From Gammaproteobacteria bacterium (GTDB lineage: Bacteria; Pseudomonadota; Gammaproteobacteria; QZLD01): 64,000 nt of DNA. The stretch spans positions 1,309 to 65,308 of the forward strand of contig JAWSVB010000001.1 of NCBI GenBank assembly GCA_033852135.1. Direction: 5' to 3'. Below, piece by piece: positions 5,627 to 39,862 of the stretch (positions are counted from its first letter, which is position 1; every line of letters begins with the position of its first letter). The translations under genes were made by a program, and so were the position numbers. The notes beneath the pieces are model-generated. The model saw only the letters and a list, made by a program, of their open reading frames with translations. It made no database searches and was not told where the DNA came from.

Positions 5627-6791
5627 TATGATTCTCCCCTACTGGATTGAGGCCTTCTGGACGCCAGAGCAATATCACAATCATCACTAAAACTGCCGAC
5701 ATTCCTCCAGCCAAAGGGGGATAAATTCCATTCATATAGTTTTGTGCAAGCATTAATAGCACTGATCCAATCAGACACCCCTTGATTGAACCAAGACCAC
5801 CGATAATCACCGCAACCATAACAACAAGAATGAGGTCGTCTGATACAGCAAGAGATACTGAACGATTATTCAATGAATACAAACTACCACCAATAGCTGC
5901 ATATATATTTGCCATGACAAAAACAAGAAGAAAAATAGTTTTAACTTTGTAACCAAATGCTTCGACCATCTCTTTATTCTCAACTCCAGCCCGCACCAAT
6001 AAACCAAAGCGAGTTTTAATTAGCAATAAATGAGTAAATATGAAAATGAATAGGCCGACACCTCCTGCAAGCAATCTGGAATATAAAATTCCAACCCCGC
6101 TATCCCAAGACTCAAACAGAGTTAATTGCCCTCTAAGAAACCATGGTTTCCAGACACGAGGAGTACTCCCCCCATAAAACACCATTAATATCTCAATCAT
6201 TACTACCGCAACACCTAGGGTAAGCAATATCTGCGCTGGCTGATCACCATATACCTTACTGATTACGAATTTTTCATAAAACCATCCAGCAAATGCTAGC
6301 GCTGCAGCAGCAAAAGCAAGACCGGCAACTAATAAAGCCACAGAAGTTGGCCAACTTGCTCCATAAAACATCCCTTTTGTTGCTACAACAGTTTTCTCTA
6401 CAGGTGGAATAACTCCAGGTACAGGTGTCCAGTAAACAGTTTCAACCACTTCTGTTAATTTGTTTACCTTGAGAATGAAGTGCCAACATATAAAAGATCC
6501 AAAAGCGATAAATGCTCCATGAGCAAGATTAATCACCCCAATAAGCCCAAAAATCAATGTCATACCAGATGCTAAAATAAATATTAAAAACCCCATTGTT
6601 ATTCCAGCAAGGGTTAGCTCTAACCAGTTTTTACTCCAGTTTGAAAAAATCAAGAAATAACTTATATCTCCACCTGACTGCAGCAGCTGTATTAAAAGCC
6701 CTATAAAATATGCGCCCAAAGATAAATATAAAAAAACCAGAGTATTTCTACTTCTGAATATAGATTTAAGAACACCTTGTTCCATACCCAC
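5619..6791 (-). CDS. ABC transporter permease, LivH-like
   Basis: Multi-TM protein with INLAHGAF and IGGLGSIKGCLIGSVLL motifs. 390 aa with an insertion of about 70 aa relative to typical LivH. Confidence 0.8.
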   Translation of the reverse strand: MGMEQGVLKSIFRSRNTLVFLYLSLGAYFIGLLIQLLQSGGDISYFLIFSNWSKNWLELTLAGITMGFLIFILASGMTLIFGLIGVINLAHGAFIAFGSFICWHFILKVNKLTEVVETVYWTPVPGVIPPVEKTVVATKGMFYGASWPTSVALLVAGLAFAAAALAFAGWFYEKFVISKVYGDQPAQILLTLGVAVVMIEILMVFYGGSTPRVWKPWFLRGQLTLFESWDSGVGILYSRLLAGGVGLFIFIFTHLLLIKTRFGLLVRAGVENKEMVEAFGYKVKTIFLLVFVMANIYAAIGGSLYSLNNRSVSLAVSDDLILVVMVAVIIGGLGSIKGCLIGSVLLMLAQNYMNGIYPPLAGGMSAVLVMIVILLWRPEGLNPVGENHND

Positions 6792-6917
6792 TCCATTATT
6801 ATTAGAATAATTATTATTTTATTTACGACTAAGTTATTCGTATAACCAAATAAGCAATAGTGCCAAAAGTAATGGTTTTACTTATTTACCTATAAATAAT
6901 CGGAATATAAGAAACTA

Positions 6918-9209
6918 TTACGGTTCTAGCGCCCCAACTGCAGGGTTAGTCATACCCCTTATTTTTCCATCGAAATCTAAGTCAAATCTAAAATCGGTAA
7001 AGATATCGCTTGGAAGAACATCACTTATGTCGGCGCCACTTGCAGATGCATAACTATTACCCAAAGGGGTGTAGTTTTCGGTAACAGGGCTAGAAAAAAT
7101 TTGACCTAAATCTTCCTCGATCACCTCACTATCTACCAGTTCCCACCCATATTGATTTCCCTGGCACCACATTAGACCTGTATATATATTATTATTTCTG
7201 TCAACTGTTGCCCCATTAGGAGGACAAAATCCATCGAGAATATTATTTTTAACTATAAAATCTGCTCCGTAGTTTCCAAACATAAGTGATGTTGATGGTT
7301 CACTGTTTATAAATGTATTATTTGCAACAACCCATGTTCCACTAGATTCATTACCAAATTCAGCTACAGCTATTCTACTTTTTGCAGCATCTACAATATT
7401 GTTATAAATAGTTATATTATTGCTTCGCTGTAGTGTCATATATCCTAGCGAATCATGAATATAGTTATTTGCTATCAAAATATCATTAGACCACAGGTAA
7501 ACTGTTATGGTATTTGCATGACTTCCACTGCAGCCACTTATTTCGTTATTTATTATTGAACTTTGATCGGCATAATAATAACGGATACCTGTCTGCCCCG
7601 GCTTATAAACCACGTTATTTTTGATTGTCGATCTAGTGGGATTACTTAAGAATATCCCAGCATGCCTTACATTTTCAGCAACCCGATTCGAATCAACAGA
7701 GCAATCATTACATCCATATATAAATATGCCTCCATACCCACGAGTAGCATGCCGATTAAATCTAATTTGATTATTTCTTATAACCACTCCATCTATTTCT
7801 GCACCTTGTGTTACAGAACCTATTCCAACACCGTGGATAAGTTCGCTTCCCGTATAACGCTGTACCTTTAGCCCCTGTATCGTTATATAACTCTGGCGAT
7901 TGATATTTATTCCAAAATTTCGCGCAGAATACCTAATCGAATTCCTATTCATAACTCCACCTAAAGGCCATAAATATGTTTTACGAGTGCCATCCTGCTC
8001 TAAATCATGAGCGATTGAGTACTCACCCGGGTTATCTATTTGCTGCACACCATTATAGATAGAATACTTTCCTTCGCGATCATCATATGGCGGGGCATCA
8101 GTTTCTGCATATGTAATAACATGGTTTACTGTGTCGTAAGAATCTATCTTGCGGAACTCAACTCGATTATGCGTCACCCATAAAAGGGCATAAGCATCTT
8201 GCCAAAAAGTAGAACTTAATGCCGAAAAAAACGCTGGATCAGTTAGTGTTGTTAACGTTTGTTCCCCAATATTTATCGAGTGATAATTATCAATATCATC
8301 AATATAAAAAGGATCTGGCATATCTGGTTCCTGAGATACCGCCAGCATCTCTTCACCTTGAAATAGGTTAGCGACTAATGCACTAACTTCTGCGGCATGT
8401 TCAGCGGGAATGAAGCTATAATAAATATTTTGCCAATTAGAGTTACCACCGCACTCAACTTGTGATTCGCATTGAGACCATCCGTTCAGATACTCCCCCC
8501 CCTCCATAATGACCTCTTCCCCAGCATATGCAGAAAAAGTTATGGGAGCCTGCTGCTCTCCGCTTTGCGATAAGGTTACTGACTCTTTGTACTCTCCAGC
8601 GCGGATATAAATAGTGTCACCTGGCTGAGCAACAGATGCAGCTTGTGCAATAGAACACCAGGCATTGTTTATAGCATTATCTTCCCTAGCAATACTATCA
8701 CTGCAATCACCACAGATATTTCCAACATCTACAAAAAGGATATTTTCCTCTTGAGGTTGAATACATGAATGTAGAGATGATGATTCCTCAGTAGTAGCCG
8801 GTCGTATTGCCGTGTAGTCTGAAAAATCAACGGCATTAGATGCACGCAAGCGAAAATAATATTCAGTCGATGCGATAAGCCCAGCTGCAACATATGTCTC
8901 TGCATCAGAAGCAACAATAGCTATCTGTGAAAAATTATTGGCATCAATACTGCGCTCAACCAATATATTAGTAGCTGTACTACCTACATATTCCCACTCA
9001 AGCTGAATGGAATCACTTCCCAAAGCTCGAGCAACTAGATCCTGCGGTACAGCTAAACTTGATTGTTGTTGTCCACCCTGCTCTCCACCTGCCTGATCAC
9101 CAGCTCCAGCATCAGAACCACCACCTCCACAATTAAACTGCAGAAAGAGTAAAACAAAAATTACTGTAATTCGTAGATATCTTAAATGGGGGGTTCGGTG
9201 CATATCCAT
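6918..9209 (-). CDS. Putative lipoprotein with Gly/Gln-rich linker, FN3 domain and right-handed parallel beta-helix repeats
   Basis: N-terminus LLFLQFNCGGGGS is lipobox-like. The FN3-like segment is SIQLEWEY...YYFRLRASN. Repeated NNxI/V beta-helix turns include IRNNQI, IKNNVV, IINNEI, IANNYI, IYNNIV, VANNTF and VKNNIL. Confidence 0.65.
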   Translation of the reverse strand: MDMHRTPHLRYLRITVIFVLLFLQFNCGGGGSDAGAGDQAGGEQGGQQQSSLAVPQDLVARALGSDSIQLEWEYVGSTATNILVERSIDANNFSQIAIVASDAETYVAAGLIASTEYYFRLRASNAVDFSDYTAIRPATTEESSSLHSCIQPQEENILFVDVGNICGDCSDSIAREDNAINNAWCSIAQAASVAQPGDTIYIRAGEYKESVTLSQSGEQQAPITFSAYAGEEVIMEGGEYLNGWSQCESQVECGGNSNWQNIYYSFIPAEHAAEVSALVANLFQGEEMLAVSQEPDMPDPFYIDDIDNYHSINIGEQTLTTLTDPAFFSALSSTFWQDAYALLWVTHNRVEFRKIDSYDTVNHVITYAETDAPPYDDREGKYSIYNGVQQIDNPGEYSIAHDLEQDGTRKTYLWPLGGVMNRNSIRYSARNFGININRQSYITIQGLKVQRYTGSELIHGVGIGSVTQGAEIDGVVIRNNQIRFNRHATRGYGGIFIYGCNDCSVDSNRVAENVRHAGIFLSNPTRSTIKNNVVYKPGQTGIRYYYADQSSIINNEISGCSGSHANTITVYLWSNDILIANNYIHDSLGYMTLQRSNNITIYNNIVDAAKSRIAVAEFGNESSGTWVVANNTFINSEPSTSLMFGNYGADFIVKNNILDGFCPPNGATVDRNNNIYTGLMWCQGNQYGWELVDSEVIEEDLGQIFSSPVTENYTPLGNSYASASGADISDVLPSDIFTDFRFDLDFDGKIRGMTNPAVGALEP

Positions 9210-9321
9210 GCCTTTATTATTATGGTTTTATCTTTTAAATTTAAACCAGAATACATAAATCCACGGGGCATCGGTATTAGACAAAGGTAGGGTAAAACTA
9301 ACCCTATAATAATTTTTATAA

Positions 9322-9367
9322 CAAAAAAGACCAAGACCGATTGGGGATACCCAACCGGTCTTGGTCT
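9322..9367 (-). terminator. Rho-independent terminator after rplS
   Basis: A 17-bp near-perfect stem AGACCAAGACCGGUUGG/CCAAUCGGUCUUGGUCU is followed by U6 on the minus strand. Confidence 0.8.
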
Positions 9368-9480
9368 CTATAATACTTGCTCTCGAAAGCCATCTTGATA
9401 AAAATCTATTAACAAAGAGATGCTAATAAAATTTTCTATCTAGGCTATGCTCCAAATAACTGGGGCATTCAAAAAGAGGT

Positions 9481-9825
9481 TTATACCTTCTCTTTAATTC
9501 TTGCAGCTTTACCACGTAGGTCACGTAAGTAGTAAAGTTTAGCGCGACGAACATCACCACGACGCTTAACTGTAATGCTGTCAATCATGTGGCTGTAAGT
9601 TTGGAAAACTCTTTCAACACCTTCACCGTAAGAGATCTTACGTACTGTGAAAGCTGAGTTCAGACCACGGTTTTTAATTGCGATAACAACACCTTCAAAA
9701 GCCTGTAGTCTTTCACGATCGCCTTCTTTAACTTTAACTTGAACAACAACAGTGTCACCAGCAGCAAATGCAGGGATCTCTTTGTTCATCTGTTCTTTTT
9801 CAAGTTCCTGGATGATGTTACTCAT
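9481..9825 (-). CDS. rplS: 50S ribosomal protein L19
   Basis: Clear L19 sequence; last gene of rpsP-rimM-trmD-rplS. Confidence 0.97.
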
Positions 9826-9857
9826 TTTCTTAAACCTCTGTGTGTTTACCGTATCAA

Positions 9858-10601
9858 TTAGCAGTTGTTTTCCTGTATATACTCTTCCAACAACCGCTTA
9901 CTTTTTTTATTCAATTCTTTACGCGCTATAAGATCTGGTCTTCTTGTGTATGTTCTACCCAATGCTTGTTTCAGCCGCCACTCATCAATTTTTTGATGAT
10001 TACCACCAAGAAGAACATCTGGAACTTCCATCCCTTCTACCTCTTCCGGCCTCGTATAGTGCGGGTGATCTAACAACCCTTCCATAAACGAGTCTTGTTG
10101 GGCTGACTCTGCATCACCAAGAGCCCCGGGAAACATTCTTACAACAGCATCTATCATCACCATTGCAGCAAGTTCACCGCCACTTATAACATAGTCGCCT
10201 AGCGACCATTCTTCATCAACTTCTGCCTCGATGAAGCGCTCATCTATACCTTCGTATCTGCCAGCTATCAGAATCAAGCTTTCTTTTGCAGATAGTTCCT
10301 TAACCCCTTTTTGATCGAGCTTTCGACCTTGGGGGCTAAGATATACTACATGAGCATTTGGGGCTGTAGCCTTTGCATCTTTTACTGCATCTCGGAGCGG
10401 TTGATACTTCATAACCATTCCGGGGCCACCGCCATATGGACGATCATCTACAGTCTTATGACGATCTTCCGTATATTCTCTAGGGTTCCATAATCCTAGT
10501 TCAATAATCCCTTTTTCAGCAGCTCGTCTTACCACTCCGTGTTTGATTACTGTTTCAACCATTTCCGGAAATAGAGTGACTACATCTACTCTAAAGGTCA
10601 T
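9858..10601 (-). CDS. trmD: tRNA (guanine37-N1)-methyltransferase
   Basis: Strong similarity to E. coli TrmD ([20 protein letters not shown]). The likely start is MTFRVDV at 10601, overlapping the rimM stop. The ORF track extends to 10619. Confidence 0.96.
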
Positions 10602-20489: not shown

Positions 20490-22454
20490 CTAACTTTGAT
20501 TTGAGGCTATCACCTTACCCATTTTACCATCCAAAGAAGAAGCCTTCCCTGTCATTCTCCAATCAAAGACCACAGAAAAAGAAAGAACTGACTGGGTATA
20601 ACGCCTTGTTTCTTTAAATGGAATTGTATCCACCCATATATCTGCAGGCAATGCGCTGTTTTCTGGTAACCAGCGTAAAACATTACTAGGCCCTGCGTTA
20701 TATGCAGCTGTAGCTAAAATCATGTTGGCATCAAAGCGATTAAGAAGCATTGAAAGGTACGCACTGCCAATTCGAATATTTTTAGATGCATTTAATAAGT
20801 CATTACTGCGCCTGAATGAGGTTTTTATCTTTCTTGCAACGCTTCTACCAGTTGATGGCATAACCTGCATAAGACCCAAGGCTCCAACTGGTGAACGCGC
20901 ATCTTGCCTAAATGCACTCTCTTTACGTAAAACTCCCATTACCCACGCTGGGTCTATTTGATTTCTTACCCCATTTGTTTCAACTTCTTTCCTATAGGCC
21001 ATTGGAAATCTAAGCTCTAGGTCATTATCAGCACCACCTAAATTTGCCCCACGAATGGCCAAATCATGCCACCCCCATTTCATAGCCTGCACAGCTGCAA
21101 TCTGCTGATCATCTTCAGTCATTTTTCTTGCAGCATGCTCCCACTCTAGTCTTGCCCACTTTTCCATTCCCACTTTGCGCAATTCACTTGCTCTCAACAT
21201 TCCTGGGTTATTTCGAAGTTTATTTAAATTAACCTTACTAACATCAACTGGATCATGATTCATTCTATAAGGTTGCCCTATAGCGTCAGCAGCCAAAAAA
21301 CCATAATACCTTCGCTGCTGCGAAAGTAGCTGCCACTTTTTAACTGCCTTATCCCTATTTCCTGTTTTACTCAACGCACGGGCATTCCAGTAAACCCACT
21401 CTGGCCTTTCCTGCTCTACCTGCGGAAGATCATCAATATTCTCAATAACTGACTTCCAATCCTGCTGCCTTAATGCAGCTCTTACTGACCAATCTCTTAA
21501 TTTTTTATCTTTATCAGCAGCAGGTATAGCGCGCATCAAATCAACGGCATCATCTCTATATTGCAAGGCTGCATGCAATGCCACTTTAGATTTTACCTGC
21601 AACTTTTGAGCAGGGGTAAATGCCATTTTTGCTTCAAACTTCTGCCAATATTTATTGGCCAGCCCAGCATCTCTTGATGCCAAACGTTTAATTCCATGAA
21701 CAATTATTTTTCTGTCTTCCCTACTAATCCTATTATATTGAACTCTGTTCAATTCACTTTTAGGGTTTCGATGCATTCTTGACCAAAATGCAAATCGCTT
21801 TCTAGAGTTTTTTGAATACAGCTTTTTTGCAAGATACTTAGCTAGCGTATGATTATTACTATCCATAGCTAACTCAATTCTTCTCCATATATCTTTTTGA
21901 CTCACATCTCCTGCCTTATAAAGCCACCCAAATACTTTGTCACAAGATTTTGGCTGCGAAACACCGACCATCCATAGATTTTTAGCTCTTACCCGAGCCC
22001 CATGCATATCACCAAGCTTTATAGAAGAAAGGGCTTTATAACACGACAAACTTTTATCCCTGTTTACCTCCCCCGCATTGCTAACATATAAATCATCAAA
22101 CTCACTCCAACTACCTTTTTTTGCCAAGTGATATAACCATGCTTTTTGCAGGTAGCCACTCAAAATAGAATCAGAATATTTATTAGTGTAATTTTTAATA
22201 TCTTTAGTCGCTGCTTTATGCAAATTATTGCGCAAATCAGCATATTCAAGATATTGAACCAATGGATAATTATGAAGGCTAGAAGGGATATTCTCTTTTG
22301 TTAGTCTCTTTTGCTTGATAAGCCTACGCGTATTTTTAAACTCTTGCCTTTGCTTAGCAACAGAATATTTTGACTTATGATTAGAAACAGATGCCTCCAC
22401 TATATAGGAGAAAGACAAACCAAAAACCACGCTTAATACTGCAAAAAATCTCAT
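20490..22454 (-). CDS. slt: Soluble lytic murein transglycosylase (Slt70-like)
   Basis: The C-terminal SLT domain has ESAFRQDARSPVGALGLMQVMP and AYNAGP, with a superhelical N-domain. The signal peptide starts at MRFFAVL (22454). The ORF track extends to 22493. Confidence 0.9.
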   Translation of the reverse strand: MRFFAVLSVVFGLSFSYIVEASVSNHKSKYSVAKQRQEFKNTRRLIKQKRLTKENIPSSLHNYPLVQYLEYADLRNNLHKAATKDIKNYTNKYSDSILSGYLQKAWLYHLAKKGSWSEFDDLYVSNAGEVNRDKSLSCYKALSSIKLGDMHGARVRAKNLWMVGVSQPKSCDKVFGWLYKAGDVSQKDIWRRIELAMDSNNHTLAKYLAKKLYSKNSRKRFAFWSRMHRNPKSELNRVQYNRISREDRKIIVHGIKRLASRDAGLANKYWQKFEAKMAFTPAQKLQVKSKVALHAALQYRDDAVDLMRAIPAADKDKKLRDWSVRAALRQQDWKSVIENIDDLPQVEQERPEWVYWNARALSKTGNRDKAVKKWQLLSQQRRYYGFLAADAIGQPYRMNHDPVDVSKVNLNKLRNNPGMLRASELRKVGMEKWARLEWEHAARKMTEDDQQIAAVQAMKWGWHDLAIRGANLGGADNDLELRFPMAYRKEVETNGVRNQIDPAWVMGVLRKESAFRQDARSPVGALGLMQVMPSTGRSVARKIKTSFRRSNDLLNASKNIRIGSAYLSMLLNRFDANMILATAAYNAGPSNVLRWLPENSALPADIWVDTIPFKETRRYTQSVLSFSVVFDWRMTGKASSLDGKMGKVIASNQS

Positions 22455-22750
22455 TATTCCACCCAATTGCACCTGGCCCCACCACAAAGCCATTTATAAC
22501 CATTTAGTATTACAGGCTATTTACTATCAATTCCTTTGACAGTAAGTCTAGAATAATAATTCATAATTTTCTTATTTTCGTTGATGTAAACCACATTATT
22601 TATAGTAATTTTTTAACTAGTTCACATTAGAATCTGATTATTAAGCATTTTTCACCAAAATACACCTATTCACGCTAAGCCGTGCAACCAAACCTAAATA
22701 GACCTCTCAGGAGCAACCACTACCTATCTCCATCAATAAATTTCAACCAT

Positions 22751-22777
22751 TAAAAAAGGGGCTTCCGCCCCTTTTTC
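22751..22777 (-). terminator. Rho-independent terminator after the KamA-family gene
   Basis: Minus-strand AGGGGC-GGAA-GCCCCU followed by U6. Confidence 0.8.
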
Positions 22778-22796
22778 TTATAATACAGCGTCTAAG

Positions 22797-24155
22797 CTAC
22801 ACTGATTTTTGCATCTGCTCATATTCATCTTCATAAAAAAACTTTTCTTCACCAAATGCAGGCTTAAGGTGGTCAAGCCATGTAGCCTTTTCATCATATT
22901 TGGCAAAAAATGGTCTCTGAACCCACTCAGGATTTCTACCCTGAATAAAGCGTAAAACGAACACTTTTTCACCTTTAATTTCAGTCACACCCTGAATTTC
23001 AATTTTACCTGGCCCAGCGCTCATGGATGGACCTCTAGCGGTTCGGCTCAGACCAGATACTTTACTAATTGCATCACGATATATCTCCCAAGCTTTATAT
23101 AACGGAACCTCAAAGTACTCTTTTGGACCGGTATCGCGCTCAACAAACATGTAGTATGGAATCAAGCCAAGCCTTACTTGCTCATTCCACATTTTAACCC
23201 ATACTGCAGCGTCATCATTTATCTTGGCAACTAAAGGAGCTTGGCAACGAATCTCTACACCAACATCGCGCAAACGATTTATAGCTTGTTTTACAATTGG
23301 AGTAGAAAGTTCTTTCCAATGATTAAAGTGAGACATAATTGCAACGTGCTTACCTGAAGCAATCAGCCTCTTAAACAGGTCAAGCAGCTCATCCGCATCA
23401 CTATCACTTACAAACCTTTGCGGCCAAAATGTAAGCGCCTTGGTGCCAACCCTAATAGTTTGGATATGGTCAAATTCTGGCTCAAGCAGCTTCTCAAGGT
23501 ATCTAGCAAAGAACTTAGTCTTCATTACCATTGGATCACCGCCAGTAAGAAGAAGATCTGTCACCTGTTTATTCTCTATAAGATAACTATGAAGTGATTC
23601 AGCCTCTTTCGAGCCAAACTTCAGTTCTTCATCTCCAACAAACTGCGCCCAACGAAAGCAGAATGTACAAAATGCATGGCAAACCTGCCCCTGGCTAGGG
23701 AAAAACAATACTGTTTCACGGTATTTATGCTGAATACCTTCAACAACCTCACCGTCCTGTTTTGGAACATTCATCTCCATTTGCCCGGCAGGATGAGGAT
23801 TTAATCTTTGGCGAATCTCTTTTACTGCAGCATCAAGCTCTTCTTTTGCTGCCCCACCCTTAACTAAGGACGATAATTTTTCATATTCTTCCTGATGCAG
23901 CATCTCTTTTTGGGGAAAAGTGAGCTGAAAAATAGGATCAACAGGAATATTATTCCAGTCAATTAGCTCATCAATAACGTAATTATTTACCCTAAAAGGA
24001 AAAACCATTGCGGCAACTTTAATATCGAAGCGCTGCTCTTCAGTTAAAGCGTCAAGGGCCTCAATTTTATCGATTGTTTTTTCTGTATATGCTTTAAATT
24101 GCACTAACGCACCACTCTTTTCTGTACTTAAATCTATGCTAGCTGATTGATTCAT
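22797..24155 (-). CDS. KamA-family radical SAM aminomutase-like protein (long form, 452 aa)
   Basis: CHAFCTFCFR CxxxCxxC cluster and lysine-2,3-aminomutase-like core with an N-terminal extension of about 150 aa. No efp/epmA neighbours. Confidence 0.8.
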   Translation of the reverse strand: MNQSASIDLSTEKSGALVQFKAYTEKTIDKIEALDALTEEQRFDIKVAAMVFPFRVNNYVIDELIDWNNIPVDPIFQLTFPQKEMLHQEEYEKLSSLVKGGAAKEELDAAVKEIRQRLNPHPAGQMEMNVPKQDGEVVEGIQHKYRETVLFFPSQGQVCHAFCTFCFRWAQFVGDEELKFGSKEAESLHSYLIENKQVTDLLLTGGDPMVMKTKFFARYLEKLLEPEFDHIQTIRVGTKALTFWPQRFVSDSDADELLDLFKRLIASGKHVAIMSHFNHWKELSTPIVKQAINRLRDVGVEIRCQAPLVAKINDDAAVWVKMWNEQVRLGLIPYYMFVERDTGPKEYFEVPLYKAWEIYRDAISKVSGLSRTARGPSMSAGPGKIEIQGVTEIKGEKVFVLRFIQGRNPEWVQRPFFAKYDEKATWLDHLKPAFGEEKFFYEDEYEQMQKSV

Positions 24156-24355
24156 CAGGAAAAACCTCTTTTAAACTCTATTCCCAACCACTCAATGGGC
24201 ACGTATTTTACCACAAAATGGCAACACTTTCCCAATTTGATTCATTTACTTTAAAAACAAAAAGTTACATGCAATACACACTTCATTCACGCACCAGGAT
24301 AGTGCGCAATCCGCAAGCCTATAACGAAAGCAGTTTTAAAAAAACCAAATACTAA

Positions 24356-31344: not shown

Positions 31345-32676
31345 CTATCTCTCCCGTTTTTCAAATGGTGCCCAAGATGGCTGCCTATAATCACCATCTT
31401 TTACAATTTGTGTTTCTGCCAACCCATTACGCCCAACTGTTTTTAATACCATATTTTTCATCCCTTTAGCTGCGTACAAAACCATATCGCCGTTAGGTGA
31501 AAATGATGGAGACTCATCCAGCGGGCCATCGCTAATAAGACGCATCTCTTCAGTATGGGTATCTTGGATAGCTATTCTATAATTACGATTCTGATCACGA
31601 TGCACAAAGGCCATATAACGCCCTTCAGGAGAAAAAACTGCTCTAGAATTATACCTTCCTTCATAGGTAAGTCTTTTAACTTTACCACCCGTTACAGGAA
31701 CTTTGTATAACTGAGGGCTTCCACCACGATCAGAGGTGAAAACTATAAATCTTCCATCTGGAGTCCATACCGGCTCGGTATCAATACCACTACTAAAGGT
31801 AAGGCGCAACAGCTCATCACTTGCAACATTAAGTAGATACACCTCTGGATTACCATCTTTAGAAAGAACTAAGGCTAGGGTTTTTCCATCTGGAGACCAT
31901 GAAGGAGCACCGTTTATACCTTTGAAACTTCTAACTAACTTTCGCTCTCCAGTTTCAACACTCTGAATATATATCTGCGCCTTTCCAGCTTCAAACGACA
32001 CATAGGCTATTCGACGGTGCCTCGGGGACCAAGCAGGTGACATCAATGGTTCGTAAGAGCTAAATACTGTTTGAGGAAATCCACCATCAGAATCGGCAAC
32101 TACTAGCTCATATAACTTTTTAGTATCTCCCTTTTTAGGATAGCCTGCCTTTATATAGGATATCTGGGTATTGAACACCCCTCTTTTACCCGTGATTTTT
32201 TGATAGATAATGTCAGAGATATAGTGCGATGCATTGCGTAATTGCGACCTATCTGGAATTGATATTTGAAAATCCCCTAATAGATTGCCCTTAAAAACAT
32301 CAAACACATCAAATTCAATCAATAAGCCTTTTTTAGCATCTGGGATTATTCGCCCTAATACCAAGCTATCAGCACCAAGGGTTCTCCATACTTTAAAACG
32401 AACATTGCCGCCAAAAGTTGGATCAGATAAAAAGTCTTTTTGAGGGATAGGTGCAAATACACCTGTGCGTTTAAGGTCATAGGTTATTACTGAGGCAACA
32501 TCAACTGTTGGTCTTTTACCCATCCCCTCCCAAACAAATGGCGCTATAGCAATAGGATGGCGGCTATATTGCCCTTCAGTAATTTCAATTCTCAGAGGCT
32601 CTGCAGCTACATTTAATGACCAACATGATATGGCAACCATTAAAATCTTTAATATTTTTTTAGCCCAATAACTCAT
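31345..32676 (-). CDS. tolB: Tol-Pal system beta-propeller protein TolB
   Basis: Full-length TolB similarity with repeated PxWSPDG blades. Confidence 0.97.
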   Translation of the reverse strand: MSYWAKKILKILMVAISCWSLNVAAEPLRIEITEGQYSRHPIAIAPFVWEGMGKRPTVDVASVITYDLKRTGVFAPIPQKDFLSDPTFGGNVRFKVWRTLGADSLVLGRIIPDAKKGLLIEFDVFDVFKGNLLGDFQISIPDRSQLRNASHYISDIIYQKITGKRGVFNTQISYIKAGYPKKGDTKKLYELVVADSDGGFPQTVFSSYEPLMSPAWSPRHRRIAYVSFEAGKAQIYIQSVETGERKLVRSFKGINGAPSWSPDGKTLALVLSKDGNPEVYLLNVASDELLRLTFSSGIDTEPVWTPDGRFIVFTSDRGGSPQLYKVPVTGGKVKRLTYEGRYNSRAVFSPEGRYMAFVHRDQNRNYRIAIQDTHTEEMRLISDGPLDESPSFSPNGDMVLYAAKGMKNMVLKTVGRNGLAETQIVKDGDYRQPSWAPFEKRER

Positions 32677-33719
32677 TATCTCTCCGGGTTAAATGTGAAT
32701 TCTATCTCCTTGAAGAACTCTTTTAGATCAAACTCATTCGGCAACGGTAATGGTGATGCTCTTAAGATAGCATTCTCCACCGATCTATCAAATACTGAAT
32801 TGCCGCTACTATTTTTTACACTTACACGATTAACCACACCCGACTCATCAAGCCTTATCGTAACTGTACATTTAAGACCTTTAAAAGATGGTTGCTGGTT
32901 CCAGTTTTTTGATACTTTATTTTTTATCAGAGGAATATAGTCATTAAGTGCTCTTGCAGCTCGCCTTCGCCTTGCTTGCTCCTCAAGCTTTTTCTCACGA
33001 GCACGTTCTGCTACAGCTTCTTTCTCTGCAGCCTCCCTTATCTCACGTTCCCTTTGCGCTTGCTTGCGAGCCTCTTCCGCTTTTTTAGCTTTTTCTTCTG
33101 CGGCCTTGCGTTTTTCCTCTATCTTTTTCAGGCGTTCTTGCTCTTTACGCTCACGCTCCTTGGCTGCTTTTTTCTGCTGTTCTATCCTTTTTTTCTCTTT
33201 TTCGCGCTCTACTTTAATTTTTTCTAAACGTGCGCTCTCTTTCTTTTGCTCAGCCTTAATTTTTTCTAACCGCTTATTTTCTGCGGCCTCTTTCTTCCTT
33301 TGTTGTTCAGCTTTCTTACGCTGCTCTTCTTTGCGCTTAGCTGCATCGCGTTTTTGTTTCTCTTTTCTCTGCTTATCGGCTATTGCCCTTTTCTTCTCGA
33401 GATCTTTTAAGCGTTTTTGTTCTTGTTCTCGCTGTAACTTAGCTTTTTTTGCTTCTCGCTTAAGCTTATTCACTTTATCTTGCTCAGCCTGTATCTTAGC
33501 TTTTTCAAGATCACGCTGGCGCTCGATCTCTGCCGTAACTTCTGCATCATCAAAAGCTACCGCATCAATAGTTTCAACAGGAAGTGGTTTAGGCTTAACG
33601 ACATCTTCACTGCTATATTCAGCCACAAGCAATACAGCAACTATGGCAAGGTGTAAAACCACTGAGGCAGTGATCGAAATAGCTGTAACCTTACTATCCA
33701 TATTGACCTTCATCTTCAA
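32676..33719 (-). CDS. tolA: Tol-Pal system protein TolA
   Basis: N-terminal TM, a long Lys/Glu/Ala-rich helical domain, a TolA C-terminal domain, and operon position. Confidence 0.9.
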   Translation of the reverse strand: MKMKVNMDSKVTAISITASVVLHLAIVAVLLVAEYSSEDVVKPKPLPVETIDAVAFDDAEVTAEIERQRDLEKAKIQAEQDKVNKLKREAKKAKLQREQEQKRLKDLEKKRAIADKQRKEKQKRDAAKRKEEQRKKAEQQRKKEAAENKRLEKIKAEQKKESARLEKIKVEREKEKKRIEQQKKAAKERERKEQERLKKIEEKRKAAEEKAKKAEEARKQAQREREIREAAEKEAVAERAREKKLEEQARRRRAARALNDYIPLIKNKVSKNWNQQPSFKGLKCTVTIRLDESGVVNRVSVKNSSGNSVFDRSVENAILRASPLPLPNEFDLKEFFKEIEFTFNPER

Positions 33720-35081: not shown

Positions 35082-35109
35082 TGTCAACCTAACCAATACA
35101 GCATCGTTA
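35082..35109 (+). promoter_or_regulatory. Candidate ECF-type promoter upstream of the ECF sigma gene
   Basis: tGTCAAC-N16-CGTTA (AAC ... CGT spacing of 16 nt), about 30 nt upstream of the ATG at 35140. Confidence 0.3.
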
Positions 35110-35139: not shown

Positions 35140-35802
35140 ATGAAACATGAAGCTGCTTTAAATATTAATACTGTGCAATATATTAATAAAATAGACTTTC
35201 CACTTGATAGATCTATAGTTAATTTATATTCGCCTTGGAGCTGCAACCTGACTAATTCAGCAAATAAAGAACGACTTAATATCTTTTTGAAACAAGTCGA
35301 AAAGAAGGCTTTTAGAATCGTTATTTCATACACTTATGATAATGACGAGGCGCTAGATATTGTCCAAGATAGTATGATAAAACTCGTAAGGTCTTATGCT
35401 GATAAAGATGAGTCTGAGTTAACCCCTCTTTTTTATCGGATTCTTTACAACACAATAAAAGACTGGAAGCGGCGCAGCTTTATCAAAAATAAGTTTTTCA
35501 GCTTTTTTAGTTCAACTAGCAACAGCGATGATCTTGACCCTATAAACCTAGTTGAAGATAACTCTCAAGATGTGGAAAGGAAAATATCCAACCATCAAAC
35601 TCTAAATAAGGTTGAAGTCGCAATTACACATTTACCAGAGCGCCAACGCCAAGCATTTGTGTTAAGAATATGGCAAGATCTCGATGTTAAACAAACGGCA
35701 AAGGCTATGTCTTGCTCTGAAGGAAGCGTTAAAACACACTTATCAAGAGCATTAAAAAACCTAAAGGATTATTTAGGGGAGGCACACCATGAATCAACAT
35801 GA
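35140..35802 (+). CDS. ECF-family RNA polymerase sigma factor
   Basis: Region 2 is AFRIVISYTYDNDEALDIVQDSMIKL. Region 4 HTH is LPERQRQAFVLRIWQDLDVKQTAKAMSCSEGSVKTHLSRA. The N-terminal ~40 aa are unusual, so the start is uncertain. Confidence 0.85.
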   Translation: MKHEAALNINTVQYINKIDFPLDRSIVNLYSPWSCNLTNSANKERLNIFLKQVEKKAFRIVISYTYDNDEALDIVQDSMIKLVRSYADKDESELTPLFYRILYNTIKDWKRRSFIKNKFFSFFSSTSNSDDLDPINLVEDNSQDVERKISNHQTLNKVEVAITHLPERQRQAFVLRIWQDLDVKQTAKAMSCSEGSVKTHLSRALKNLKDYLGEAHHEST

Positions 35803-36158: not shown

Positions 36159-36995
36159 ATGCTATCTATTTTAAACTACACCAAAACTTTTAACCCTAGC
36201 TTTATTCAATCCATAAGAGCATTAACCTCTGTTATCTTTTTTATTATTGCCGCAATAGCACATCAACCATTTGCTTTTGCGGATAGCTATCAAGATATGC
36301 CTCCACACAGGCATCCACCACACATGCAAATGGAACATGAGCAAAGAAGCAACGATTCATTGCAGCCCAAACAACCAATTGAGTGGAAAAATTTGAGCGC
36401 TAAATCAAAAAACATCCTGCACTCTCTAAATGACAACTGGGAACTAATACCGATAAATATTCAGCATTTTTTACACAGAATAAGCTCTAACTGGGATCAT
36501 ATCCCACCACACCGCCAAGATAAGATTCTGAATAAAATTGAAAAGATGTCCAAGATGTCAGAAGAGCAACTAAAAGTGCTGGAGCAAAGGCATCAACACA
36601 TGAAAGGGCTTGATCCACAGCAACGAAAAAAATTAATGCAACAGCGCCGTAAGTTTTCTGATTTAAAACACGAGGAACGTATGCACTTAAAACGTCGTTG
36701 GAGCAACCTTTCAGACGAAGATAAAAAACATATTCGAAACCGCAGACATGCAATGAGAAGCATATGTGATTCAATTTCAAAGGTCGAAAATTTAAAGCTT
36801 AAGCCGAGTGATCTTTCAATGGAAAATATTTCACCTCAACTAAAAACCACCTTAACAGATATCATAAACTCTGATGATTCAATCCCCCATCAGCTATGGC
36901 ATAAATTTATGCGAACTTTAGATGACTGGGAAAACGCCCCAAAACACAAAAAAGAAAGGGTTATGCACTTCATTAACAAATGTGTAAAGAGATAA
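36159..36995 (+). CDS. Periplasmic His/Arg/Lys-rich helical repeat protein (DUF3106-like)
   Basis: Signal peptide ending AFA|DS. Repeated W-x-L/I-P...R/K motifs occur (EWKNLSAKSK, NWELIP, NWDHIPPHRQDK, RWSNLSDEDKK). It starts 2 nt after the anti-sigma stop. Confidence 0.45.
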   Translation: MLSILNYTKTFNPSFIQSIRALTSVIFFIIAAIAHQPFAFADSYQDMPPHRHPPHMQMEHEQRSNDSLQPKQPIEWKNLSAKSKNILHSLNDNWELIPINIQHFLHRISSNWDHIPPHRQDKILNKIEKMSKMSEEQLKVLEQRHQHMKGLDPQQRKKLMQQRRKFSDLKHEERMHLKRRWSNLSDEDKKHIRNRRHAMRSICDSISKVENLKLKPSDLSMENISPQLKTTLTDIINSDDSIPHQLWHKFMRTLDDWENAPKHKKERVMHFINKCVKR

Positions 36996-37043
36996 TCAGC
37001 ATAATTCACCCCAGTTACACAGATTAATTATGCTGTTTTTTTC

Positions 37044-37484
37044 TTATGGTGACCCAATATACCCTTTCCAATCTAACTTCCATCGATCAACACATTTATT
37101 CAATCTGAATTTAATCTCCGGTATATTTACCGCAGCTGCAAATGCGTACTCGATTGCATCGACCGAACTAGTAAGCACATCATGCTGCTTATTATGGATA
37201 CATGCCAATGAGGCAGAAAGCATTGATTCGAGCGCATGAAAATGATGTGGCGCCGCCTTTGAATAGTTTGACAATTCACCTAACAGTTTATTCAAATAAA
37301 GTACCGCAGCCCTCCTACTTGGTTCAGCCTCACATGCAACAACAACCATACAAAAAGATAGATCTTTATTACCAAAATCATTTTCATATATTGGCGTTAA
37401 CTTCCTGGCTACATCTGCAGCAAACTCTTTAACTTCGTTAGATCCTTTATCCTCTAGAATCCCAACAATCTCTTCTCTTTTCAT
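37044..37484 (-). CDS. Uncharacterised ~147-aa all-helical protein, paralog P1
   Basis: The MKREEIVGIL start at 37484 has a GAGGGGG RBS 5 nt upstream. About 40% identical by eye to 38122..38565. The ORF-track extension to 37538 is unlikely to be real. Confidence 0.7.
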   Translation of the reverse strand: MKREEIVGILEDKGSNEVKEFAADVARKLTPIYENDFGNKDLSFCMVVVACEAEPSRRAAVLYLNKLLGELSNYSKAAPHHFHALESMLSASLACIHNKQHDVLTSSVDAIEYAFAAAVNIPEIKFRLNKCVDRWKLDWKGYIGSP

Positions 37485-38121
37485 GACGCCCCCTCGGTAT
37501 AGAGTTATATATACATAGAGGTATGATAAACATACCACTCAAAACTGCTTTTATATGCCCCAATATAAAACAAGCAGCTTAAGTACCATTATCGTCTTTG
37601 TTGAATAGAATTTATATAGCAATATTATTAGATATAACATGACTTTTGTTGACTTTAGGTCAACACAAAAACAAATTTATAAAAACTTATATATCAACAG
37701 CTTATATAAGACTATAATTATGTATTTACTAACATATCCAATTTTACACCAAGAAAACTATAATATATTAACATACAACAAAACTTAACCAACAACACCA
37801 AGCATGAAGATAATGACAAAAGCATAATCACACGAACCATCACAAACAAATTTTATTTAACTTTACATTTGAAAACAGTCAGATAAACAACATACCACCA
37901 AAAATAAACCGCACCATTCTTCATTGTAAAATTGAATGGTTTACTCACGGTTAACAATTTATACATACTTATTAGTACTTTTTCTATATACCTGCATTAC
38001 TTTTTAGATAATAATAATTCATGGGCTAATTTTTTTAGTCGGCATACCGCCACGGACAACAGCACCTTGCCTCATACAAACATTTATGTCAGGGTTGCAC
38101 AAACAATGGATTGGGTATTTA

Positions 38122-38565
38122 ATGATGAAAAAAAATGAAATTTTATCCATATTAAATAACAAAGATATCTGTGACATCCAAGAGTTCACAGCTGATATTG
38201 CTAGAAAGCTCACAACTATATATGAAATTGACCACGGCTATAAAGGTCTATATTTTTGCATGCTCACCATCATCTCTGCCGACAACTCTTCGCGCAAAAC
38301 TACAGAAAACCACCTCAAAGAACTTCTAAACGACCTTAATAACAGTGTTGATTCGCTGCCTCACCACATTGCAACAATAAAGTCGATGCTCTGCGCTGCC
38401 CAAGCAACACTTAATGAATCAAAAGAAGATGTTCTATCAAAGTCCATTGAATCAATTGAACACGCATTCACTGCAGCAGACCATATACCAGAAGTTACAG
38501 AAAAACTTTTGCTTTGTATCGAGAGATGGAAAGATAGCTGGAACAACCCTCTGCGCTCAATTTAA
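38122..38565 (+). CDS. Uncharacterised ~147-aa all-helical protein, paralog P2
   Basis: MMKKNEILSIL start. Motifs shared with P1 are EF(A/T)AD(V/I)ARKLTxIYE, FCM, PHH, SML, DVL, IExAFxAA, IPE and RWKxxW. Confidence 0.7.
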   Translation: MMKKNEILSILNNKDICDIQEFTADIARKLTTIYEIDHGYKGLYFCMLTIISADNSSRKTTENHLKELLNDLNNSVDSLPHHIATIKSMLCAAQATLNESKEDVLSKSIESIEHAFTAADHIPEVTEKLLLCIERWKDSWNNPLRSI

Positions 38566-39107
38566 CCAACAGAGATATTACAACCCTGCTAATCATTAGA
38601 ATTAACTAGTAGCAAAAAAACACCAGGCAAAATTATCTGGGCTAATGCACATGGATGATAACACTCTAATACACCCAGCTTATACCTGTAAAAATAGAGC
38701 TTATAAAAACCATACTATTAAAACTGCTGCTTAATTTAATCCTATGTTATCTTCATTGATATAATTTATGCAAAAACCAATCATATCCTTATTATTAATT
38801 ACGACAACACAATACAGAAGATAACCCCTTTTACAGTTATTACTTTAAGGTAAAAAATTAATTTTAACCCCCCAAATATCATACTATGCATTATGTAAGC
38901 TGCACCTAATGCAGGAATCACTTATATTCTAACAGACCTCTTTCTTTTATTGTTAGGCTCTATATTTTACACCTTACATCAAATAACATGTTGTTTTTCC
39001 AGAACATACCAATTAAAATCACGCGATCAAACTAACACATTGATAATGCTGTGCAGTCTTTTTTTATAAAAAAAGTTAGATTCCGGCAAAAAAATCTAGG
39101 ATAATCA

Positions 39108-39149
39108 AACATCAAGACGTTTTAAAAAAATAGATGGCGTCTTGATGTT
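39108..39149 (+). promoter_or_regulatory. Perfect 12-bp inverted repeat (18-nt loop) upstream of 39234..39782
   Basis: AACATCAAGACG-N18-CGTCTTGATGTT, 85 nt upstream of the ATG. Confidence 0.5.
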
Positions 39150-39233
39150 ATGCAGTTAACTTCGCATTTTATGATCTTTATTGATCATTTGGGCACATGC
39201 GAAAAAAATAAATAGATGTTGAGGTAAAAGCAA

Positions 39234-39782
39234 ATGCCAATTTATGAAATTACTGAGCCAGGTGGCGCTCAGCGCCTTCGTGTGGCTGTAGGCGTTAACG
39301 GTGAACTTCGTCAAAAGTACTTCACCCTAACCAAAAACAATAAGCGCGTATCTGAAGATGCAGAGCTTAAAATTTGGAAGCAAGCTGAAAAGCTTAATAC
39401 TAAATGGGAAAAAGAGAAGGATGAGGCTGCTCGTAAAAGAGCTGTTGCAGCACAAACTACTAAGCGTGGAAAGTCTGTATATGATACAGGTGTTCGCGGT
39501 CTTAAAATGGTTTGGGTTGTAAAAAAACGTCCTAATAGTGTTCACTACAGACCTTCTTTTAAGATCCACGTAGCTGAAGGTCATACACAACAAGGTGTAT
39601 TATCTGTCGGGCACAAAAAAGCATGGAAACAAGCTGTGCAAAAGTACTGTGGCATTAAAAATATTCACAGAAACTCTCACTTAGTTGAGAGAATGCCTTC
39701 AATCCAGAAATGGGAAGAGCTAAGACAGTACTACAACAAAGAGCTTGGCTGGGAAATCCCAGAGATTGCAATACCGGAGTAA
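39234..39782 (+). CDS. Small basic protein of unknown function with AP2/integrase-arm-like signature; paralog of 27509..28009
   Basis: GAGG RBS. Shared motifs are RQKYFTLTKNNKRVS, TGVRGLKM and AWKQAV...HLVERMP. Confidence 0.55.
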   Translation: MPIYEITEPGGAQRLRVAVGVNGELRQKYFTLTKNNKRVSEDAELKIWKQAEKLNTKWEKEKDEAARKRAVAAQTTKRGKSVYDTGVRGLKMVWVVKKRPNSVHYRPSFKIHVAEGHTQQGVLSVGHKKAWKQAVQKYCGIKNIHRNSHLVERMPSIQKWEELRQYYNKELGWEIPEIAIPE

Positions 39783-39804
39783 CCACTCCTATTTGCCAAT
39801 CTAA

Positions 39805-39836
39805 TAAAAAAGAGGCTTAACAAGCCTCTTTTTTAT
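39805..39836. terminator. Bidirectional terminator between convergent genes
   Basis: A6-AGAGGCTT-aaca-AAGCCTCT-T6. Confidence 0.85.
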
Positions 39837-39862
39837 TAGAAATAATTAATTTCAGTACACAA

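Follow-up and report, generated by a model that had tools for sequence, protein, structure and literature searches.

A divergent pair of all-helical orphan proteins in marine Gammaproteobacteria: evidence for ancient paralogs with separate, conserved upstream modules

P1 and P2 are two small genes that diverge from one another across a long AT-rich spacer in a 64,000-nucleotide stretch of DNA from a Gammaproteobacteria bacterium (GenBank assembly GCA_033852135.1, contig JAWSVB010000001.1, positions 1,309 to 65,308), the whole of which is referred to here as the window. Our analyses indicate that the pair very probably consists of two ancient paralogs, each with a conserved module of its own, and that both genes are probably co-regulated through a putative 19-bp operator contained in these modules. 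That their products are modulators acting through binding to other proteins is a possibility we advance only tentatively. The complete account, which joins ancient paralogy, separate modules, a shared regulator and a protein-binding role, is the best explanation we can offer, and we hold it with a little less than even confidence.

The two genes lie where a preliminary description of this DNA had placed them (Table 1). Their end-to-end identity, put there at roughly 40% by eye, is 42% by BLASTP (61 of 145 residues, positives 64%, gaps 0, E 6e-43), and every block of shared residues that it listed is present. By this measure the similarity is far above chance, and a trace of it survives in the DNA, where the N-terminal blocks form an inverted repeat of 83 nt at 72% identity (37347-37429 and 38180-38262). 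A Shine-Dalgarno sequence, GAGGGGG, stands 5 nt upstream of P1; for P2, the alignment of homologs favours a start at 38125 (MKKNEIL) or 38122 over a longer open reading frame (ORF) from 38086. The 3' end of P1 is 48 nt from a convergent DUF3106 gene (ending at 36995; Pfam E 1.2e-16), in agreement with both the distance and the family first proposed. A six-frame hidden Markov model (HMM) search detected no further paralogs within the window. Compared with their orthologs in the metagenome-assembled genome (MAG) GCA_033852155.1 (hereafter gam1; locus L001), P1 and P2 have ratios of non-synonymous to synonymous substitution (dN/dS) of 0.069 and 0.085 respectively, at a dS of about 0.9; the same pairing gives 0.046 for the neighbouring HD-GYP gene and 0.098 for the sigma gene. 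These ratios mark both as genuine genes under strong purifying selection. P1 is 88% identical to its gam1 ortholog (P0002) and 94% identical to a fragment in L024 (assembly GCA_041156785.1), and the family is conserved over its full length in at least six lineages.

As judged by sequence searches, the family is an extremely rare orphan, restricted to one uncultured marine lineage. When 1.84 billion representative proteins were searched exhaustively with a HMMER profile, five real clusters emerged (P0010-P0014), and word-indexed searches of 5.8 billion proteins returned nine 90% clusters, comprising close relatives only. All sources are marine Gammaproteobacteria MAGs or metagenomes from bioplastic (PHA/PHB/PHBH) biofilms, those named being Madre6 (PMC6566015), 'BHT14_PHBH_gam1' (gam1) and 'PJM12_PHB_gam2' (gam2); the Madre6 habitat is a dense biofilm at an oxic-anoxic interface (PMC6566015). 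No significant or consistent match to the family was obtained from Pfam, NCBIfam, PHROGs, PADLOC, PDB sequences (phmmer and hmmsearch) or phage genomes (tblastn). The family is previously undescribed, having neither a Pfam nor an NCBIfam model and no database name other than 'hypothetical protein', and the initial characterisation of the pair as paralogous, uncharacterised, all-helical and devoid of an enzymatic motif is borne out by the negative Pfam, NCBIfam, PDB, PHROGs and PADLOC searches.

A neighbour-joining tree divides these sequences into two clades. Window P2 groups with P0004-P0010 and the genes of gam2, Madre6, L009 and L025; window P1 groups with gam1 P0002, P0011 and a gam2 gene on contig JAWSVC010000007 (L021). 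The latter is on a different contig from the P2-type gene of gam2, and its neighbours are unrelated genes, which encode SBP_bac_3 proteins and a 362-aa protein that looks secreted. At least five paralog clades make up this lineage-specific expansion. Since P1 clusters with P0011 and the unlinked gam2 copy, and P2 with syntenic single-copy genes, the tree points to two ancient paralogs that were brought side by side, with no recent local duplication. P2 is thus the resident ortholog, and P1 an old paralog placed beside it in this sub-lineage. Hence, the tree does not support the earlier view of a 'head-to-head duplicated pair'.

The surrounding locus takes two forms. In four lineages, tolQRAB-pal-ybgF is followed by co-directional genes for an extracytoplasmic function (ECF) sigma factor, an anti-sigma factor and a single P2-type protein, on which a 7TMR-DISM hybrid kinase gene converges; beyond it come a gene of 182 aa, convergent HD-GYP and DUF2914 genes, and thiD thiE. 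In the second form, which is that of the window, gam1 and L024, the sigma and anti-sigma genes are followed by the DUF3106 gene, P1 converges on this, and P2 and the 182-aa gene then run in the forward direction; the survey of gene neighbourhoods found the divergent P1 and P2 arrangement in these three assemblies. The hybrid kinase is missing from all three (in the window, the region compared is 36996-38121), which have the DUF3106 gene (36159-36995) and P1 instead, and tblastn with the relatives' 7TMR-DISM hybrid kinase found no remnant in the two ORF-free regions of the window. The kinase of the relatives is a 932-942-aa 7TMR-DISM hybrid histidine kinase (L003, L005, L009 and L025, at approximately 10.5-13.3 kb). 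The tolQ-thiD block is syntenic in at least five lineages and its swaps are local only, which is at odds with the 'accessory patch' originally suspected. No recognisable polymorphic toxin or polyimmunity array occurs within 10 kb on either side of the genes in the window or at L001, L003, L005-L012, L021, L024 and L025, where the neighbours are tol-pal, ECF sigma, kinase, HD-GYP, thiDE and SBP genes; the remark that no toxin gene is nearby holds for the window and for every P1/P2-type locus examined.

The spacer between the two genes, described beforehand as AT-rich and about 640 bp long, measures 637 bp (37485-38121) and has a GC content of 0.25-0.32, compared with about 0.40 in the coding parts. 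Upstream regions were aligned for the P2-type genes of five genomes, for the P1-type genes of three, and then for all eight together (alignment A6). They share a module in which a 19-bp element, with the consensus tGTTAAC-N5-GTTAACa (GT[TA][ATG]AC-N5-GT[TC][AG]AC) and starting 169-186 nt before the ATG, is followed after exactly 28 nt by CTATATA, after about 19 nt more by (G/C)ATAAT, and then by a leader of about 100 nt. The module is present at 11 gene copies of both clades, including the unlinked loci L021 and L030 (the eight aligned, two in L024 and P0011 in L030). The P1-type operator is kept at the same distance in gam1, gam2 (L021), L024 and L030, and the P2-type operator is conserved in gam1, gam2, Madre6, L009 and L024. 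The central filler, of approximately 270 bp, is 50-66% identical to gam1 with indels, while the module blocks are 82-84% identical. Because each gene has a complete copy of the module and the 270 bp or so between the copies are unconserved, the long spacer is best read as two self-contained modules lying back to back with filler between them, and not as one control region shared by both genes, as had been supposed. Each gene would likewise be a monocistronic, stand-alone unit, since each has its own promoter region and the upstream genes in L030 and L015 have terminators.

For the putative operator, a pattern search allowing one mismatch retrieved exactly two sites in 64 kb, those of P1 and P2; a scan of the window with a position weight matrix (PWM) built from the sites scored these at 24.9 and 19.7 bits and everything else below 9 bits. 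In L001, L003, L005, L009 and L021, sites above a 10-bit threshold were found solely upstream of family genes, and the element is absent upstream of the distant members P0012-P0014 and P0016. GTTAAC is self-palindromic, which allows two readings of the element, a 19-bp palindrome to which a factor would bind as a dimer, or a pair of repeats spaced by 11 bp; the variation among sites falls in the two central positions and does not separate these readings. As far as present tools show, the module appears to be new. One common transcription factor is the most probable regulator because the module has remained intact, and its spacing fixed, while the proteins drifted apart until about 40% identity was left; a single dimeric or tandem-binding factor, encoded elsewhere, would then control both P1 and P2.

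Other readings of the upstream regions were considered. A hairpin is suggested by one compensatory pair between the window and gam1, but four other sites contain mismatches, and we prefer to regard the palindrome as a candidate protein-binding site. The structure of the P1 and P2 leader RNAs was no better than that of shuffled sequences (z -1.3 to +0.5), no Rfam match was found in the spacers, and a scan for sigma-70 promoters and terminators gave 14 promoters where 11.2 were expected, which is chance level, and 0 terminators. Membership of an ECF sigma regulon was also rejected: only the GTCAAC-like hexamer matches, with CTA or TTA where CGT is required, and P1 and P2 are not assigned to the regulon of the adjacent sigma factor because their modules lack the CGT -10 element. 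The sigma gene itself (35140-35802) is preceded by an ECF autopromoter, TGTCAACC-N16-CGTTAT (35083-35109, + strand), which is invariant in six genomes and whose -35 hexamer, GTCAAC, is the same as an operator half-site.

Table 1. Coordinates of P1, P2 and the features of their upstream and downstream regions in the window
Feature	Position	Strand	Description
P1	37044..37484	-	146 aa, orphan family, P1-type clade; cytoplasmic, eight helices
P1 GATAAT box	37588..37593	-	second -10-like hexamer, 19 nt after CTATATA; ~100-nt leader; A.AAT columns 79-83 of A6 conserved
P1 CTATATA box	37613..37619	-	-10-like; exactly 28 nt downstream of GTYRAC repeat; TATAT columns invariant in A6
P1 operator (putative)	37647..37665	-	TGTTGAC-CTAAA-GTCAACA, 19-bp palindrome, 164-181 nt before P1 ATG; PWM 24.9 bits
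Central filler of spacer	37666..37937	.	AT-rich, poorly conserved, no conserved ORF
P2 operator (putative)	37938..37956	+	GGTTTAC-TCACG-GTTAACA, 166-184 nt before P2 ATG; PWM 19.7 bits
P2 CTATATA box	37984..37990	+	28 nt after repeat
P2 GATAATAAT	38007..38015	+	-10-like ATAAT box; ATAAT columns conserved; followed by ~105-nt leader
P2	38122..38565	+	147 aa, P2-type clade; ortholog of single-copy syntenic gene in related genomes
Region after P2	38566..39233	+	668 bp; first ~200 bp unconserved; 38765-39233 is conserved upstream region of 182-aa gene

AlphaFold2, supplied with the family alignment, models both proteins with confidence (P1, pLDDT 90.0 and pTM 0.86; P2, pLDDT 92.2 and pTM 0.88) as the same eight helices, from H3-10 to H122-140 in P1, with the last three residues disordered in each. 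Foldseek found no convincing match in the PDB (best E 0.24, TM <= 0.37), the matches being scattered over Bcl-2, globin, AhpD and designed-repeat proteins. Against BFVD, the top match of both models was A0A6J5RNF9, an 'Imm-5-like domain-containing protein' of an uncultured Caudovirales phage (for P1, E 0.013, prob 1.00, TMq 0.65 and TMt 0.47; for P2, E 0.006, prob 1.00, TMq 0.70 and TMt 0.51); the next matches of P2 were A0A516MPQ3 (TM 0.65/0.54, rmsd 3.6) and a Caulobacter phage CcrSC protein (TM 0.55/0.61). The suspicion that these proteins resemble all-alpha immunity families is thus supported at the level of the fold, where an Imm-5-like protein is the top Foldseek match (prob 1.00, TM 0.65-0.70), and fails at the level of sequence, where no profile matches. 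Invariance across the 14 members of the family is limited to R27, Y33, S87, A114 and A117; K28, C45 and C131 come close to it, and every member has D or E at position 24. There are 3-7 cysteines per protein, and H81 is invariant in the P1 and P2 clades and lost in P0012-P0014. The isoelectric point (pI) is 6.2 for P1 and 5.5 for P2, and 4.6-6.4 for 12 of the 14 members, with a net charge that is mostly -2 to -11. The proteins are cytoplasmic, hydrophilic and without a signal peptide, and P1 has no hydrophobic N-terminus. None of these features points to catalysis or DNA binding.

A stoichiometric binding role is proposed because of the Imm-5-like fold, the small size, the few conserved polar residues, the acidity and the monocistronic organisation of these genes. 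P1 and P2 would be non-enzymatic and would each bind another protein, as an inhibitor or in an immunity-like or connector role, the two paralogs differing in their partners or specificities; those partners may be incoming toxins, endogenous signalling proteins (sigma factor, kinase or enzymes of cyclic di-GMP (c-di-GMP)) or redox-related proteins. Several results weigh against this account of regulation and function. The Imm-5-like resemblance is confined to the fold, relates predicted models to predicted models, and has E-values at the borderline, and all-alpha folds readily give structural matches by convergence. No Pfam model, Imm5 included, is matched at E <= 1, and no partner gene is common to all of the contexts in which family members occur (ECF sigma with hybrid kinase, GGDEF, ahpCF-oxyR and the Olokun island). 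The exclusivity of the operator is a local statement covering the window and loci of about 20 kb. What the CTATATA and NATAAT boxes do, and where the operator stands with respect to the promoter, is guesswork, and the generic sigma-70 scan did not single out these boxes.

Foremost among the alternatives is true orphan immunity, in which P1, P2 and their paralogs would be divergent members of the Imm5 superfamily that neutralise the polymorphic toxins (CdiA-CT or DYW-deaminase) of neighbours in the biofilm, without a cognate toxin gene of their own. We consider this unlikely, though by no means negligible. The Imm-5-like top match of both models speaks for it, as do the invariant R27 with an acidic residue at position 24 (Imm5 is described with a conserved R and D; PMC3482391), the expansion into at least five paralog clades, the dense-biofilm habitat (PMC6566015) and the position of one distant member, P0014, in an island adjoining the OloA/OloB genes of an Olokun defence system. 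However, none of the 14 members matches any Pfam model, Imm5 included, at E <= 1, the 10 kb on either side of the genes contain neither a recognisable toxin nor a polyimmunity array, in the window or at any P1/P2-type locus examined, and syntenic, core-like genes with dN/dS of 0.07-0.09 and a conserved, dedicated operator are unlike fast-evolving, constitutive immunity cassettes. At the P0014 locus (L019, 1939-5408 on the - strand and 5650-10462 on the + strand), P0014 is the last gene on the contig and ends a run of nine small same-strand genes, in which one Mrr_cat nuclease gene alone has a family match; the adjoining Olokun system is complete (OloA E 7e-100, OloB E 5e-177).

A second alternative, which we rate as distinctly unlikely, is that these proteins are signalling accessories or connectors that bind the ECF sigma or anti-sigma factor, the 7TMR-DISM hybrid histidine kinase or enzymes of c-di-GMP. 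In four lineages the P2-type gene directly follows the sigma and anti-sigma genes and converges on the hybrid kinase, with an HD-GYP gene 1-4 kb away; the distant member P0012 begins 1 nt after a GGDEF gene, directly downstream of it; and the operator half-site GTCAAC is also the -35 hexamer of the sigma autopromoter GTCAAC-N16-CGTTA. Against this, tblastn finds no kinase in the lineage of the window, where P2 is still strongly selected, and for that reason P2 is unlikely to depend strictly on the adjacent kinase. Moreover, P1-type genes stand at unrelated loci, the P1 and P2 promoters lack the CGT -10 element of an ECF promoter, no Hpt, STAS or anti-sigma fold or profile was matched, and H81, the one conserved histidine, is lost in the distant members.

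That P1 and P2 are thiol- or metal-based redox sensors, or small redox proteins, has in our view little chance of being correct. The nearly invariant C45 and C131 among 3-7 cysteines per protein, a histidine at position 81 that is invariant in the P1 and P2 clades, the oxic-anoxic interface of the biofilm habitat and the conserved position of the P0013/P0016 clade beside ahpF-ahpC-oxyR in two lineages are all in keeping with such a role, as are weak matches to hemerythrins (E 0.038 for P1 with NCBIfam bacteriohemerythrin; E 0.012 for one member with Pfam Hemerythrin). Yet each of the conserved cysteines is a serine in one distant member, neither a CxxC nor a hemerythrin H/E motif is present, and none of the matches to hemerythrin, AhpD or globin reaches significance. 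The context of P0013 and P0016 has a counterpart in the window, where a radical-SAM-like gene (24164..22803) is adjacent to slt (22352..20493; both within 20493-24164, - strand, with a gap at 22353-22802); in L015 and L027 the same two genes are about 4.5-6.5 kb apart and enclose the P0013/P0016 paralog, ahpF, ahpC and a LysR/oxyR-like gene.

Autoregulation, in which P1 and P2 would be the factors that recognise the palindrome in front of their genes, is unlikely because of their charge and lack of a DNA-binding fold, and we give it very little credence. The operator occurs solely upstream of family genes in the window and the loci scanned and moves with them to unlinked loci, and the motif ARKLTxIY has residue types typical of DNA contacts; on the other hand, most members are acidic, with a net charge of -2 to -11, no helix-turn-helix or other DNA-binding family or fold was matched, though such folds are abundant in Pfam and the PDB, and P0012-P0014 and P0016 have no operator. 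Finally, the notion that P1 and P2 are spurious or decaying ORFs of an AT-rich intergenic patch, which might draw on the family's being nowhere annotated and on a premature stop that shortens the P2-type ortholog in L024 by its last 9 residues, is effectively refuted by the selection analysis (dN/dS of 0.07-0.09 at a dS of about 0.9), by full-length conservation in at least six lineages with confident AlphaFold2 models, and by the part lost in L024 being the disordered C-terminus, and we leave it virtually no chance. The stop in L024 (1424-1427) is a TGA where the window has TGG (Trp), and the 9 residues belong to a low-confidence tail.

An ORF-free region downstream of P2 had been noted as well. 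Its 668 bp (38566-39233) indeed contain no + strand ORF of at least 40 aa, but the alignment of the window with gam1 breaks at 38566-38764 and then resumes at 84% overall, rising to 90-94% in 39051-39233. Judged by this conservation, 38765-39233 belongs to the 182-aa gene and not to the P1/P2 unit, so that most of the region is the conserved upstream region of its downstream neighbour. The 182-aa gene (39234-39782, + strand) encodes a very basic protein (pI 9.9, net charge +16) with no family or PDB match, which is identical to its gam1 counterpart at 181 of 182 positions; its dN/dS is 0.008 and its dS 0.29, against about 0.9 for most neighbours and 0.48 for the sigma gene. In lineages whose P2 retains no more than 45-49% identity the 182-aa protein retains 90-93%, and its gene is always preceded by some 470-600 ORF-free bp. 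The last 180 or so of these are 90-94% conserved and include a perfect 12-nt inverted repeat (39108-39119 and 39138-39149). By eye, the protein shows two AP2/integrase-arm-like repeats of beta-sheet and helix, and may thus bind DNA, either as a nucleoid protein or as a regulator. A perfect hairpin with 19-nt arms (TCTAATAAAAAAGAGGCTT / AAGCCTCTTTTTTATTAGA; 39800-39840) separates the 182-aa gene from the HD-GYP gene that converges on it; it probably serves as a terminator in both directions, and the weak Rfam matches to small RNAs and microRNAs at that position are due to it. Elsewhere in the window, a TolA-like gene (32676-33719, - strand) contains a long low-complexity stretch rich in Lys, Glu and Ala, which gives rise to an extreme AT skew, reaching -0.70, and makes several long but spurious ORFs appear on the other strand.

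If the proposed account of P1 and P2 holds, the bacteria that dominate bioplastic-degrading biofilms would have domesticated an immunity-like fold, turning it into two chromosomal paralogs under the control of a transcription factor. A bolder version, which we think distinctly improbable, is that P1 and P2 represent a hitherto unrecognised, regulated class of Imm-5-fold decoy or inhibitor proteins; these and a few other diverged paralogs would be induced on a specific signal through one dedicated transcription factor, with each paralog neutralising a different incoming toxin or endogenous signalling enzyme; were it true, this would be an inducible orphan-immunity regulon of a biofilm bacterium, as opposed to constitutive, toxin-linked immunity. 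The 19-bp operator offers a direct handle for finding the regulator, and small, confidently modelled proteins are well suited to partner screens. The spacer also illustrates how an 'unusually long' divergent intergenic region can be resolved into two copies of a module by comparing a few MAGs. This is one of many lineage-restricted hypothetical families and has no bearing on a long-standing open question; it is a tidy and experimentally tractable lineage-specific puzzle rather than a surprising new system.

Comparison with known systems places P1 and P2 outside several familiar classes of small protein. A role as an Hpt phosphotransfer protein was rejected, there being no Hpt match in Pfam and none among the Foldseek PDB matches, with H81 lost in P0012-P0014; that P2 persists under selection where the kinase is absent also counters it. 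A helix-turn-helix transcription factor was rejected for want of a matching family or fold and given a pI of 4.6-6.4 in 12 of 14 members, and a hemerythrin-like di-iron protein was rejected on an NCBIfam score of 14 bits against a cutoff of 84, a Pfam E of 0.012 in 1 of 14 members, and histidines that are not conserved. Connector and anti-adaptor proteins such as PmrD, the Ira proteins and Rsd are small, monocistronic, tightly regulated, non-enzymatic proteins that bind a signalling protein, and P1 and P2 may be alike in these respects. No sequence or fold similarity between connectors of this type and P1 or P2 was detected.

The operator recalls the ArcA-type box, which consists of two direct repeats of ATGTTAAAAA spaced 11 bp from centre to centre (ATGTTAAAAA-1-ATGTTAAAAA; PMC4173790), in that it too comprises two GTTAA-containing hexamers exactly 11 bp apart. 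It differs in that the second repeat reads GTCAAC or GTTGAC at four or more of the 11 operator sites, so that the GTTA core is interrupted there, and in that only two sites occur in 64 kb, where the motif of a global regulator such as ArcA would be expected to be commoner. As no ArcA was identified here, we treat the likeness as a resemblance and not an assignment, and the GTCAAC variants argue somewhat against ArcA.

The closest comparison is with Imm5, a mostly alpha immunity family with a conserved R and D that is tied to DYW-deaminase and CdiA-CT toxins (Zhang et al. 2012, PMC3482391). Both models resemble A0A6J5RNF9 in fold, a comparison between predicted structures that has no PDB counterpart, and like Imm5 and Imm-5-like proteins P1 and P2 are small, mostly alpha and non-enzymatic, with multiple divergent paralogs; the invariant R27 and the D or E at position 24 of the family may correspond to the 'R, D' by which Imm5 is described. 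An hmmscan against Pfam-A at E <= 1 gave no match to an Imm5 (PF14423) or Imm-5-like profile for P1, P2 or any of the 14 members, these models being assumed present in the Pfam copy used. We therefore call P1 and P2 Imm-5-like in fold and do not count them as members of the Imm5 family. They differ from Imm5 in lacking HMM-level similarity and an adjacent toxin or polyimmunity array; their synteny is core-like, purifying selection on them is strong, and each has a dedicated promoter that is probably regulated. With orphan immunity genes and polyimmunity loci they have in common immunity-like genes without a cognate toxin, several divergent copies per genome and a dense community (PMC3482391). 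Whereas polyimmunity loci are tandem, same-strand arrays in variable and often mobile islands, P1 and P2 diverge and are monocistronic, the chromosomal block around them is conserved, and a conserved putative operator precedes each.

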